A stretch of DNA of 64,000 bases from a virus (IMGVR_UViG_3300031555_001542:46014-110013); one strand, 5' to 3'; positions 41,452-50,400 are shown, counted from the first letter of the stretch. Notes: generated by a model not told the origin, from the letters alone. A program made the numbers and translations.

Positions 41452-44400
41452 ATGGCTAAAGAAGTAAATATTGATAGTCTTGCCGACAAGATTGCTGACA
41501 GATTGCTGGCCGCAAAACAGCAAGCTCGTGAGGCAGGTGAAGATGTTGGAGAGGAATTTGCTAAAGGTGTTGTGCAAGGTATTCAAAAACATTCAAAAGA
41601 TTTTAAAACAGAGACTACAAAACAGTTTGAAGAATTGCAAAAAATAACAAAAAGGTTCAAATCAAAACAATCAGTTTCTACGGCAGATTGGAATAAAGCT
41701 TTTGAGCTTTCTAAAGAGTTAATGAAAAGCGAAAGGTATGCTAAGAATGTTGAGGAGATTCTTGGTGATGTTAGGGCAACATTTAGTGGTATCGGTGAAG
41801 TATCTGGAATTAAAAACATTGTTAAAGAATTGGATAAAGCCAGTGATAGATTAGAGTCAGTGTCTTGGAGCCAGGCTGGTATGTATTTTAAAAGCAGGAA
41901 GAAGCCAGCTGTTGAACAACCAAAAACAGAAACTCCTGTAGTACAAGCAGATCCTGCACCTGTTGTGAAGGTGGAAGAAAAGAAACAAAAAGCTATTCAA
42001 GAAACTACTGCAGACTTACATGATCAAAAAAATGCGGTTGAAGATGCATCTAAGGCACAAGAAAAATATAACCAAAGAATGTCTGAAATTAAAGACAAAT
42101 ATAGCGCAGATATACAAGAACAGAAGCAACGTATTTCAAATCAAGAGGCTTGGCTTAAATATCTAAATGGTTCTTTGGATGAATCAAAATTTAAAACAAC
42201 TGGTAAAAAAGCGGCGACAGATCAATTGCGTTCACTTACAAACTATATGGTCAATGGTCGTCGTAATAATTATGCAAATGACCCTGGACAATATCCAAAA
42301 GAAATGGCCGAAGTTGCCTGGATGCGTGGATATCAAGAGGCAGAAAGACAGGGTGTTGCAGACAGTGTTCTAAGAAGATTTGATACAGATGCAAGATATG
42401 ATTTTGATGCAAATTTAAAAAAATTACAAGACGAATATGATATGCGCAAAAAGATTATGGATGCTGCATATGAAGAACTTAAACGTTTATATTTGGAAAG
42501 AGATAAAGAAGCTTTTGCCGCATTTACAGATAATCTAATGCCAGATGGTCCTCAGTCTGATGAGGAAAACAGAATTCTATCCGAGATTACAGAGCAAGTT
42601 GCTAAAAAAACATTAAGTTATACTGAGGCAAAAGCAAGCCTTGAGAAGTCTATTATAACTTTGCGTAATATGGCATCTTCTGAGGCAAAAGTTAATCTTC
42701 AAAATTTAGTTAATGATTTAAAGAAGACATATGATGCTGAAACTTTTGATAAAGTTTTTGGTGCAGATTTAAATATGTTCGATTGTTTTGATAAAATTGA
42801 CGATGCTGGTGCAAAAGAATTGTATGATATGCTCATTGAAAGCAATAAAACATATCAAGCAAGTCTTGTTAAAACTATAGATGTCCAAAAAGAGTTCAAT
42901 AAACAAATGCAAGATGGAAATATACTTTATCATGCAGGCGACTTAAGCAATCCATCTAAAACTCAAAAAACATATCCTCTTGGTCATGTTCGTCCAAGTA
43001 AGAGTAGTGGTATATTTAATGGATTTACTGGTCTATATACCACCGAAGATGTGGATGGGTTCTGGGGCAATGAATGGTCTGGTGCACCTATTAGTACGAT
43101 TGACGCATCTCAATATAAGCTATTTAATGCAAGAACAGACGAGCTTGCAACAAAAGCAAAAGAATTCTTTGATAGTTTAAACGGAACAATTTATGGATAT
43201 ATTGAAGATTTTTCTACTGGAGAAATCAAAAAAGCAACTGATGTTAAAAGTATTGATGAATTGTGGACAGATTTCCAAGAAGTGTTTAAGAATACTAATA
43301 TGACGTTCGAGAAGTTCTCAGAGTTTATCAAAAAAGCACAAAGTCTTGTGTTTGGCAAGAATTTCGACTTCGTAGAGGGACTTCCAGATTTAGATGAGGG
43401 AGTTGTAAAAACTGGAGAGAAATCTGCACTACAAGGAGTGTCAAAAGAAGTCTTTAATTTAGATAGTTTCCAAACTCAACTATTAAAGATGCTTGGTTTT
43501 GAAGGTATTGATCTTCGTGGAACTAAGCATAATGGTACTTATACTGGCGGTACAGTTATATTTGATGTTAAGCCAGAAAGTATAAAGACCACAAATGAAA
43601 AATGGTCTGATGTTATGGCTAGTCATGGATATGAGATTGATGAAGATGATTTAGCTCGTGAAGAAAAGCGTAGACAATTGGCATTTGATACCGCAAATGC
43701 GTATAGTCAGCAAGCAGATTCTGCAAAAGAAGTTGCGGCTGCACAAAAATCTGACTACTATGAAATGTCTCATAAAGAAGCAACTGATTATATTTTTGCC
43801 AATTACGATAAAGATTTGTGGGATAGATGGTTCTTGCGTGGCGAAGATGACGCACGATCTGAGATTGCTAAAAAACTAGAAAACGATGCAAAGTTAAAAA
43901 ATGCCGCACTTAATCAGATGTGGCATAATTATAAAGCACAAACAGAATCTGATATATCATATGACGACTTTTTAAATTCTAAGATTCCTGTATATAGAGG
44001 CGAGCGTGCAATTGATCTTTTTGGCAATATTGGAGAGTCAATTACTAAAGATGCAGCGTCTTTTTCTCTAGATAAGAGAATTGCGAAAGATTTTGCTGGC
44101 GCTTTGGATAGTAGAATAGGTGCAGTATTAGAAACATATATCTCACCAAAAGATACTCTCGGAATGCCTCGTCCTAAGTATGAAACAGAAAGTAATGCAG
44201 AGACAGAAGTTCTGGTTCCAATGAATCGAATTGCTGATTCTCCAGAGTACTTAAAATTTAAGCAAAAACTAAAAGAAAAACAAGATATACATTCATCTGG
44301 AGAAACTTCTGAAGATGTAGAAAAAACAATTACTTCTTATGAAGAACTATGTGGAGTTGTTGCTAGATACAACGAGTTAGTTAAAAAAGATATTCATAGA

Positions 44401-47400: not shown

Positions 47401-50400
47401 AATGTTAGATTGCTTGGCGAAGACGGCGCTAGTGATAGATTGCAAGCCCAAATTGCCGACTATAGAAGATTGGTTGATGAGCTTGTTGAAATGAGATTGC
47501 AGCTTGCAAGAAATTCTGATCTTACTAACGACGTAGATTTTTCTAATAGGTTTGCTGATACAGCAGAGAGAGCCGAGAGGGCACGGGCTGCAATTGAGGG
47601 AATTTTTAAGGAGTCTCAAAAACTTTCAAAGCTTGGTGAACCTGTTGCTGTTAGTACAGATAAAGTTTCTGATTTAACAAACTTAAAATCTGCAATGATT
47701 GAGTTTGCAAACAGCACTTTAGATGGAGAGGTTAAGATTAATGGTTTCAACAAAGAAGGAAACCAGATGTATGTTACTCTCAATAATGGCACTGGCGCAG
47801 TTAAGAATATTACTGTTGCACTTGATGGCGCAACTGATAAACTTATGGCATTTAGCACTGGCACAAGTAAGGCAACGAATGAGTGGGAAGACTTTAAGAC
47901 ACAAGCCGTTCAAGGCGCAAAGAATATAATTGGAATGTATGTTGGATTCCAAGAAGGCGTACAGGCCTTTAGAACTGGTGTTAATTATGTAAAAGAAATT
48001 GACTTGGCTATGACTGAGTTAAAGAAAGTTACTGATGAGACTGACGCCAGTTATAAGCAGTTCTTAGATGATGCTGGTAGTACTTCTGCGATTATTGGCA
48101 GTACTATTAGAGATTTTACTGAGGCAAGTGCAACTTTTGCTAGACTTGGCTATTCTCTTGAGGAAAGCTCAAGCATGGCAGAGACTGCAATTATTTATAA
48201 AAATGTCGCAGATGGATTGGATACTGTTGAGGAGTCTTCTGAGAGTATCATTTCTACCATGATGGCTTTTGGTATTGAAGCTAATGATACCATGAGTATT
48301 ATTGACAGATTTAACGCTGTTGGCAATAATTTTGCTATTACTTCAGCTGGTATTGGCGATGCATTGCAAAGATCTGCATCGGCATTGTTTGCTGCTGGTA
48401 ATACACTAGATGAATCTGTAGCTTTAGTTACAGCCGCCAACTCAGTTATTCAAAATCCAGAACAAGTTGGTACAGCATTAAAAACATTAGCACTAAGATT
48501 AAGAGGTGCCAAAACAGAACTAGAAGAAGCAGGCGAAGACGTTGATGGAATGGCCGAAAGCACTTCACAATTACAAGCAAAACTAAAAGCATTGACGCAT
48601 GGTAAAGTTGATATCATGCTTGATCCAGATACATTTAAGAGCACTACCCAGATTTTACGTGAAATGTCTGCAGCATGGGAGGATATGACTGACATTGAAC
48701 GTGCAGCTGCTCTAGAGCTTATGGGCGGTAAGCGTCAGGCCAATATTCTATCTTCTGTTATAACAAACTTCGAAACAGTCGAAGATGTAATTACCACCTC
48801 CATGAACAGTGCAGGCTCCGCCATGGCCGAAAACGAGAAATGGCTTGACTCAATTGAAGGTAAAACATATCAATTTACAAATGCTCTACAAACAATGTGG
48901 AGTAATATGCTCGATTCTGAGGTCATCAAAGGCTTCTTAGACTTTGGAACAGATGCAGTTCAGTTCCTTGATACAGGTGCAGGAAAAGTAATTGCTTTTG
49001 TAGCTGCTTTAAAACTAGCAGCTAAATTCAAAGGCTTTAGTATTAAAGGTGTGGTTCAAGGGCTAGGAGACACAATAAATAAAATTACAACGGCACAACA
49101 AACTTTGCAAACACTAGGAAAGACTACGCCCATTGGACAGGGATTTGATTTAACAAATGTTAACGCATACGCTCAGGCGGTTGCAAACTTAACCGCAAAA
49201 CAGCAAGCAAACCTATTAGCATCTCATGGTCTAAATCAAGAGCAAATTAGATATGCATTGACATTAAATCAAGTTGACGATGCAGCTATGAGAGAAGCTA
49301 TGGCCCATGTTCATGCAGCATCTGCAAAGCAGCAAGAAAATGCTGTTACAGCACAATCTATACAGCAAAAGGCAAAAGAGTTGGCAATGTCTTTGAGAAC
49401 TCAAGCTGCTACGGCAGATGAGACTCGTCAAAAAGAATTAAATGTTGTGGCAGATATTCTTGAGAATGCTACATCCGAAGAAGCAATTAAAAACAACTTA
49501 CAAGAAGTAGTCACGTCTGGAAGTGTTTCTGCGGCACTGAAGGCTGAGACCACTAGTACATTGGGATTAGATACTGCAAAGAAAGGTTTATTAGCAACAA
49601 CGAAAGCATTAATGATAGCCAATCCAGTTGGTTTCTGGCTAACTGTTGGAACAACCATATTAAGTTTAATTCCAATTGTTTCTGGCCTTGTTGATACTTT
49701 CACGAAATCTGCTGATGAGATTAAACAAGAAGCAACTGAAATTTCTCAAGCATATTCTGACACAGTTAATGAAATCAATAGTAATTTAGAATCACTAGGT
49801 ATTACCTTTGATGCGAAATCCATAACAACTCTAGAAAATGAATTTACAACATTATCAGCAGGAGTAGATCGTTATGGCAATAACATATCTCTTACTTCTG
49901 ATGAATATGAACGTTATAGAGAAATTTGTGAAAAAATTGTTGGTATTAACCCACTAATAGCGTCTGGGTATGATAGTGCAACAGAAGCAATTGGAAATAA
50001 TGCAAGTGTGCTTTCTCAATTAATAGGTTTACAAAGAGAGCAAGCAAGGCTGGCTGCAGAAGAATATGTCAATGATGAAAATCTTGAAACTCTCACTGAT
50101 GATTCAGTAAATGATTATAAAGATGCTGCAGCAGATTTAGCATCTACACGCTCAAGTGCTATTGCAGGAATAAGGTCTGCAATAAATGAAAGCTATTCAG
50201 AATTTGTTGATAATAAACCAGATTATGTAGACAGTTCCTTAGATACTGCCACTAATCAAGCAAAATGGATATTGGAACAGATAGGATATAGTTCAGAACA
50301 AGCTTTAATTCAAGCTCAAAAGTATTTTAATACCGATGGAATGTCTGGAACTTTTGATTCTACAAGCTTTTTTAATCAATATTATCAAGAAATTAAGTCA

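Follow-up and report, generated by a model that had tools for sequence, protein, structure and literature searches.

The tape measure protein (TMP) gp96 of the Thermus phage P23-45 has 5,002 amino acids (aa), with an active RNA polymerase forming its N-terminal part (Chaban et al., 2024, PMC10770324). According to this work the polymerase is present in virions on the full-length TMP, the P23-45 tail is extremely long, and transcription of pre-early genes by this enzyme was proposed to take place at the TMP pore. A second described group are the polyvalent proteins, single polypeptides that are encoded alongside virion genes and combine at least two unrelated effector-type domains (Iyer, Burroughs, Anand, de Souza, Aravind, 2017, PMC5512222). 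ADP-ribosyltransferases (ARTs) are reported there as their commonest cargo, mosaicism is extensive, and a lethal-factor-like metallopeptidase, which presumably cuts the domains apart, is usually carried as well. The paper ties polyvalent proteins to MuF, portal, N4 vRNAP or conjugation genes; TMPs are mentioned neither in it nor in a later NAD+/ADPr survey. Here we describe a giant TMP with at least three enzyme-like domains in front of its core, encoded in the viral stretch IMGVR_UViG_3300031555_001542:46014-110013. This stretch of 64,000 nucleotides, referred to as the window, makes up the right-hand end of a contig of 110,013 bp from an uncultured virus (IMG/VR record; 68% complete by CheckV).

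A single uninterrupted open reading frame (ORF) at 41452-55755 (+ strand) runs for 14.3 kb without a stop and encodes a protein of 4,767 aa, termed P0001. The interval 41452-47985, which had been singled out in a preliminary description made from the sequence alone, corresponds to the first ~2,178 of the 4,767 codons. That description let the recognizable TMP core begin only at about residue 2180, and our searches confirm this: the Pfam model PhageMin_Tail (PF10145) matches aa 2216-2425 with 71.6 bits (cut-off 33.2), and aa 1-2200 gave no significant Pfam match, either with the whole protein or with ten overlapping 400-aa slices, and no match among PDB sequences. PHROG 4211 ('tail length tape measure protein') covers aa 1993-3621 (E 1.7e-80). 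BLASTP comparison with 14 giant relatives (2,771-5,687 aa) showed that the colinear homology common to all of them begins at aa ~1950-2110. Furthermore, the gene order RuvC-like gene, ~175-aa ORF, giant TMP, DUF6558 tail protein gene is conserved in independent metagenomic contigs. P0001 is a genuine tail TMP, and its recognizable core starts at aa ~1950-2216. The gene and its parts up to the core are:

41452-55755, + strand: giant TMP gene (Pfam and PHROG matches, giant relatives, synteny)
41452-42066, + strand: conserved N-terminal cap, aa 1-205, helical composition
42067-42909, + strand: module A, aa 206-486, helix-rich, found at other positions in P0002, P0009, P0010 and P0011
42913-43626, + strand: module B, aa 488-725, putative H-Y-Y-D ART-like domain with a helical insert
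43765-44283, + strand: module C, aa 772-944, putative R-S-ExE ART domain (R849, S870-x-S872, E917-x-E919)
44806-45540, + strand: module D, aa 1119-1363, domain with predicted HopA1/phospho-Ser/Thr-lyase fold
45541-47301, + strand: region E, aa 1364-1950, helix-rich and pre-core, with possible small domains at aa ~1560-1680 and ~1800-1860 (composition profile)
48097-48726, + strand: TMP core signature PhageMin_Tail, aa 2216-2425 (Pfam)

A tblastn search with aa 1-2200 against 50,697 GenBank phage records yielded no match at E 1e-5 or better. A composition scan showed that Gly/Pro/aromatic-rich islands alternate with helix-former-rich stretches before the core. AlphaFold2 models were made for aa 487-985 (499 residues, modules B and C together) and aa 1064-1390 (module D). 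They contain three globular islands, at aa ~487-725, ~772-944 and ~1119-1363. Long helices connect these islands (aa 726-771, 930-985, 1064-1118 and 1353-1390 by DSSP of the models), the helix between the first two having 45 residues. At least three globular enzyme-like islands in helical spacers had been proposed beforehand, and the models bear this out, since the slices are predicted to form alpha+beta and alpha/beta domains and not only helices or coiled coils.

The BLASTP comparison with the 14 relatives divides the N-terminal part of P0001 into an N-cap (aa 1-205) and the blocks A (~206-486), B (~488-767), C (~770-1040), D (~1096-1385) and E (~1365-1950). Each of the relatives carries blocks of P0001 at differing positions and in differing combinations, and the core is colinear. 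The N-cap is located at the extreme N-terminus of 17 relatives (33-52% identity); Pfam searches with this part of seven proteins gave noise, with TMP_N below threshold (E 0.1-0.2). Region E is common only to closer relatives and is modular in turn.

To survey the modules more widely, a HMMER search with aa 487-1390 was run across 1.84 billion representatives and returned 158 matches, ~60 of which have B, C or D upstream of a TMP core according to hidden Markov models (HMMs) of the three modules. In these ~60 TMPs the start of the core varies between aa ~714 and ~3738, and the cassette layouts comprise B, D, B+D, B+C, C+C, D+B and B+B. The relatives thus show what the preliminary description had anticipated, namely cargo that varies while the core stays constant. 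The closest relative, P0002, shares 59% identity with P0001 across ~3,500 colinear residues; it is devoid of C and D and has another insert of ~450 aa. These alignments identify the pre-core zone as an insertion zone between the conserved N-cap and the ruler core, not as a simple N-terminal extension. Recombination within the linkers probably reshuffles the cassettes among related phages, with core, N-cap and gene neighborhood remaining fixed. A recurring delimiter motif at the module borders of P0001 was sought and not found; the borders are variable helices rich in E, K, Q and A. A combined B+C alignment built from whole giant proteins (A4) placed the C family onto B and was replaced by an alignment of sliced loci (A7). 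In one relative, P0007 (L006:~5360-5700), B is followed by a different module with an H-Y-like signature (VYHGSG ... GLGAYFTEE), which is possibly another ART-type cassette, absent from the window.

Module D has the clearest structural neighbors. Its model shows an alpha+beta fold with helices on both flanks (mean pLDDT 85.2, pTM 0.77). The top five of 48,161 chains in an unbiased structural search were HopA1 (4rsw_B; Z 10.2, 187 aligned residues, rmsd 3.9), LxmY (9dk1_B; Z 9.7), CuvL (Z 9.0), SalKC and ThurKC (Z 8.0 each); the next value was 6.9 and belonged to generic alpha/beta sandwiches. The Foldseek list was headed by LxmY (lexapeptide dehydratase lyase subunit), HopA1, OspF, class III lanthipeptide synthetases and SpvC/VirA. 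A second structural alignment gave Z 10.0 for HopA1 (182-188 aligned residues), Z 9.7 for LxmY and Z ~6 for SpvC, VirA and OspF, and a protein-language-model look-up independently indicated HopA1 and VRP3 clusters. At the level of the predicted structure, module D is a member of the fold shared by HopA1 and the phospho-Ser/Thr lyases.

The earlier proposal of a HopA1/OspF-like domain therefore holds for the fold; membership in a sequence model does not. The HopA1 family PF17914 has no candidate in the genome, PF03536 is unmatched by module D, and Pfam gave no match on module D and its homologues. A PDB search with the module D profile returned only coiled-coil noise from the flanks, and the BFVD viral structure library contained no convincing neighbor. 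Three single-sequence IMG/VR scans found only three close copies, and a word-indexed search for stand-alone versions found only two short matches, one of them at 61% identity.

The alignment of module D homologues (A3, n=23) contains six invariant residues (R1130, W1228, Y1251, K1252, Y1254 and K1285) and four nearly invariant ones (D1304, Q1305, H1309 and Y1320). K1252 and K1285 are located on neighboring predicted strands and lie 33 residues apart, a spacing that is compared along the sequence only. In the described lyases, the catalytic Lys (K136 in SpvC, K219 in CaoY) is found 32 residues past the enolate-stabilizing Lys or Arg (K104 and R187, respectively; PMC9486802). The K1252/K1285 pair is thus suggestive of a competent lyase site. 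Module D resembles the group of HopA1 (PF17914), LanY (LxmY, CaoY), OspF/SpvC and LanKC/LanL in its predicted fold and in this pair of a basic residue and Lys at near-equal spacing. It differs in that the third catalytic residue of SpvC, Tyr158, could not be mapped onto it, in that no sequence model matches, and in that its carrier is a phage TMP, neither a RiPP enzyme nor a type III effector. Within the libraries and literature that were searched, module D would be the first domain of HopA1/phospho-lyase fold in a phage virion protein.

Module C is a well-predicted alpha/beta domain (pLDDT 86-94). In the alignment with 30 short stand-alone homologues (A1, n=31), W, Y and R are invariant, and G and E-x-E are kept in at least 90%. 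The family layout is YRG ... S/A-x-S/T ... GExEVLVP, so that R, S-x-S and E-x-E follow each other in the order typical of R-S-E ARTs. The structural hit lists consist almost entirely of enzymes of this type, to which all domain-sized neighbors belong (C3, Vis, ExoS, BECa, CDTa, iota, C2-I, Certhrax and ART2.2), with ~120-130 residues aligned at Z up to 4.5 and Foldseek E of at least 0.2 in the two-domain model. The module C family comprises ~100 representatives, mostly phage-borne, which have a conserved helical N-terminal part (GWFR...YK...RNA.LN); ~90 of the proteins containing it are stand-alone or not TMPs, and the triad is kept in them. Sequence models did not recognize the family: Pfam gave no match on module C and stand-alone homologues (n=10), models such as PF03496 are unmatched by the module, ADPrib_exo_Tox is without a candidate in the genome, PHROGs gave no annotated family, and the best PDB profile match had E 0.23. 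An hhalign comparison with SpvB placed YRG and GExEVLVP on VVYRG and GEAEMLFPP (R471, E536/E538) and was not significant (probability <1%). With its ordered triad and probable ART-like fold, module C resembles the R-S-E mono-ARTs (C3, Vis, ExoS, iota/CDTa/BECa, SpvB, and Alt, ModA and ModB of phage T4), but it forms a family of its own that is missed by Pfam ADPrib_exo_Tox and by PDB profile search. Taken together, module C is very probably an R-S-E mono-ART.

Module B is the most widespread of the three and was found with its HMM in ~35 TMP representatives. H494, G496, T526, G527, Y529 and Y555 are invariant in its alignment (A5, n=20), and D687 is present in at least 90% of the sequences. 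H494, Y529 and D687 fall on predicted strands of the model (residues 5-9, 41-42 and 199-201), which corresponds to an H-Y-D layout, and a helical insert of ~100 residues lies among the strands. H-Y-Y-E is the signature of ARTs of the diphtheria toxin type, of which the module B pattern is reminiscent. Polyvalent proteins carry ARTs for which an H-Y-D configuration has been described (Iyer et al., 2017, PMC5512222). Structural matches were weak in the two-domain, partly low-pLDDT model: the catalytic domain of the albireti (diphtheria-like) toxin aligned over 153 residues (Z 4.0), and the best domain-sized neighbor, gp27 of cyanophage A4 (Anabaena phage A-4L), aligned over 125 residues within its positions 1419-1600 (Z 4.5). 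Pfam ART-PolyVal (PF18760) has no candidate in the genome, module B included; Pfam on 20 relatives containing B found PhageMin_Tail alone, and a word-indexed search for stand-alone homologues of B found none. On balance we favor an ART-fold, NAD+-using domain, with less confidence than for module C. Gp27 is a structurally solved podophage ejection protein (L013:20116-25269, - strand) that is covered by no Pfam family; its residues 1419-1600 and module B are possibly an undescribed domain shared among ejection proteins.

P23-45 gp96 (and its counterparts in P74-26, G20c and TSP4) is the closest published precedent, since it is likewise a giant TMP of a long-tailed phage with an enzyme N-terminal of the ruler on one polypeptide. 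The cargo differs, being an RNA polymerase in gp96 and two ART-like domains and one lyase-fold domain in P0001, where it is also shuffled; furthermore, activity and virion presence were demonstrated for gp96, whereas P0001 is known from sequence and models. This precedent makes the delivery principle plausible, but it also means that it is not new. The term 'undescribed system' used in the preliminary description was consequently too strong, as both gp96 (PMC10770324) and polyvalent proteins (PMC5512222) have been published. What is new is the phage lineage and the cargo set, above all the occurrence of a lyase of HopA1 fold within a virion protein of a phage; the fusion of TMP and enzyme as such is known.

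The description of P0001 as a polyvalent effector protein can be kept in part. With B, C and D, it has at least two unrelated effector-type domains on one polypeptide, encoded among virion genes, and its relative P0014 carries the polyvalent families ART-PolyVal (PF18760) and PBECR5 (PF18814) upstream of its TMP core. In addition, P0065, which came from the same set of HMMER matches (2,566 aa, modules B and C, no TMP core detected), carries LPD38. P0001 itself differs from polyvalent proteins in that it has no zincin-like metallopeptidase in the chain and none of the signature Pfam families (ART-PolyVal, PBECR, LPD); a Pfam PBECR5 search of the genome gave no candidate. TMPs with cell-wall modules are a further group, to which T5 Pb2 and SPbeta YomI/CwlP belong. 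As in the TMP motif of mycobacteriophage TM4 (PMC1796659), modules are built into the TMP, and P0001 has a C-terminal peptidoglycan-binding domain. The enzymes of this group, however, act on peptidoglycan at entry, whereas the chemistry suggested for the P0001 modules is of a cytoplasmic type.

Further features in the ruler part and next to the TMP gene are:

49624-49701, + strand: aa 2725-2750, the sole strongly hydrophobic, membrane-span-like segment, in the ruler part (Kyte-Doolittle scan)
55168-55344, + strand: C-terminal peptidoglycan-binding domain, aa 4573-4631 (Pfam PG_binding_1, 66.3 bits)
55827-57056, + strand: tail protein directly downstream of the TMP, with DUF6558 N and C domains and a weak Dit match
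39020-39793, + strand: stand-alone lethal-factor-type zincin metallopeptidase (HELGH), 257 aa (Pfam ATLF, 34.6 bits, cut-off 27.4)

The peptidoglycan-binding domain is preceded by a Gly/Ser-rich linker and fits a Gram-positive-type host and anchoring of the TMP tip in the cell wall. The DUF6558 gene also adjoins the TMP gene downstream in relatives L006 and L007, as is expected for a tail module; in the window, it is followed by a gene whose 1,532-aa product is a tail protein containing an S74 chaperone domain. Two genes upstream of the TMP, a RuvC-like Holliday junction resolvase is encoded (40342-40845, + strand), an unusual location that is also kept in L006, L007, L009 and the contig of P0039. 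In the relatives L008:6001-13206, L009:6001-21270 and L010:1272-13622 the TMP ORF ends just past the core start; a small ORF comes next (DUF2726, DUF723/CapR-like, or unannotated with 255 aa), followed by an ORF of more than 1,960 aa that carries PG_binding_1 in L009 and in the contig of P0039. From this arrangement, an inserted and possibly mobile gene seems to interrupt the TMP gene of several relatives.

The zincin gene is part of the tail module and lies 1.7 kb upstream of the TMP gene. Its product has an N-terminal hydrophobic segment and the motif AEFFA downstream of HELGH, and it matches lethal factor in the PDB (2l0r_A, E 0.004). We infer that this protein may be a processing peptidase for the TMP. 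A 493-aa protein of the structural module (37167-38648, + strand) has endolysin and transglycosylase PHROG matches, some of them to lytic domains embedded in TMPs; judged from these matches, it is a possible virion-associated cell-wall hydrolase. A 918-aa protein (16836-19592, + strand) has BspA-type LRRs and matches the Pfam CotH kinase model (28.8 bits, cut-off 23.8), so that a CotH kinase-type domain is encoded among virion-module genes of the same phage as the phospho-lyase-fold domain. Regions within 12844-15846 and 30804-36527 are paralogous to this gene and share PHROG 14959 with it. PHROG annotation of the other large genes of the window gave almost no functional names, and neither a sheath nor a host was indicated.

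Our preferred reading is that P0001 is a TMP with a pre-core cassette zone of at least three independently folding enzyme-like domains that are probably delivered together with the DNA; we assign it a probability of roughly 0.6. The domains would enter the virion as portions of the TMP, the extra protein being placed either in the lumen of the tail or in the neck or capsid. A preprint reports that the TMP C-terminus binds the baseplate. As the TMP is expelled ahead of the DNA, the C-terminus would exit first at ejection, and the N-terminal cargo would leave the tail last, just before the DNA and next to its end. Partial unfolding during passage is accepted for podophage ejection proteins. The domains of P0001 might likewise reach the host partly unfolded, and perhaps after cutting. 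Once inside, the ART-like domains would modify host proteins or nucleic acids using NAD+, and the lyase-fold domain would remove phosphate from phospho-Ser/Thr, both ahead of any phage gene expression.

Several observations weigh against delivery of active enzymes. The catalysis, virion presence, delivery and targets of B, C and D are what we infer, and none of the three modules reaches a sequence model of Pfam, an annotated PHROG or the PDB. Profile comparisons by hhalign were not significant for D with SpvC (A3, probability <1%) and gave a probability of 0.1% for B with the prototype RPP1 vRNAP (A5); profile comparison of B with cyanophage A4 gp27 gave <1%. The module B model is patchy, with part of it at pLDDT <60, and the structural support for B and C is low in score (Z up to 4.5, Foldseek E of at least 0.14), which is in part due to both having been folded together as one 499-residue model; the wide structural search with this model was swamped by the linker helix. 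No HExxH motif of zincin-like metallopeptidases is present in the 4,767 aa of P0001, and together with the missing delimiter motif this leaves the release of the domains unexplained. Moreover, three copies of ~215 kDa each of extra protein would have to be housed. Folded domains of 25-30 kDa are not obviously accommodated by a tail lumen of ~4 nm.

These housing problems, together with the zincin gene located 1.7 kb upstream, also favor real enzymes that are not injected. In this case the zone would be cut off in tail assembly, or would be active late in the producing cell or only in the envelope at entry, and the TMP would serve for co-expression. Proteolytic processing is common among TMPs. 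Apart from the P23-45 RNA polymerase, the established TMP-borne enzymes act on peptidoglycan outside the cytoplasm, as described for TM4 (PMC1796659). We nevertheless consider this explanation rather unlikely, since ART and phospho-lyase chemistry requires cytoplasmic substrates (NAD+, phosphoproteins), the N-terminal enzyme of P23-45 remains on the full-length virion TMP, and the conserved N-cap ahead of the cassettes suggests that the whole N-terminus is kept. Alternatively, the islands could be degenerate or non-catalytic and act as structural spacers, as assembly or chaperone-binding sites or as binding modules. At 0.15 nm per residue the 4,767 aa would set a tail of 715 nm, compared with ~420 nm for aa 1951-4767, and the 5,002-aa TMP of P23-45 does accompany an extremely long tail; it is also true that the islands are recognized by none of the sequence models for active enzyme families and that likeness in fold alone is no proof of function. 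However, the invariant residues are exactly those expected for catalysis (R and ExE in C, H/Y/Y/D in B, the Lys pair in D), and C occurs with an intact triad in the ~90 proteins that are stand-alone or not TMPs. Nor would a ruler tolerate a pre-core length range of 3,000 aa unless the tail length were free to vary. Inert islands are therefore improbable. An artefact, in which mis-assembly or a false fusion joined a TMP gene to the gene of a polyvalent protein, might be suspected in an uncultured-virus contig of an estimated 68% completeness, the more so as the TMP is split by inserted genes in some relatives; with 14.3 kb free of stops and the same fusion recurring in dozens of assemblies that are independent and differ in sample and source, it is extremely improbable. 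Delivery of the cassettes with the DNA thus remains the reading that we prefer.

A further-reaching version is doubtful. It holds that module D would be an active phospho-Ser/Thr lyase on the TMP, irreversibly erasing phosphorylation-dependent host responses, for example abortive infection based on Ser/Thr kinases, before phage genes are expressed. In this version, the pre-core zone of such TMPs would also be a general, recombination-driven 'effector rack' of long-tailed phages for several enzyme families that current databases do not recognize. As a practical consequence of the variable pre-core zone, tail length is not safely read from the length of the TMP gene in metagenomic phages. The three Pfam-dark domain families with clear catalytic-type signatures offer direct candidates to assay for anti-defence or host takeover. 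Should the cargo be delivered, long non-contractile tails would, besides conducting DNA, carry finished enzymes that can be exchanged; the RNA polymerase of P23-45, as the only published case, would be extended to host-modifying effectors, and the concept of polyvalent proteins from head-packaged proteins to the tail. If the proposed function of module D is true as well, it would represent a new class of phage counter-defence.

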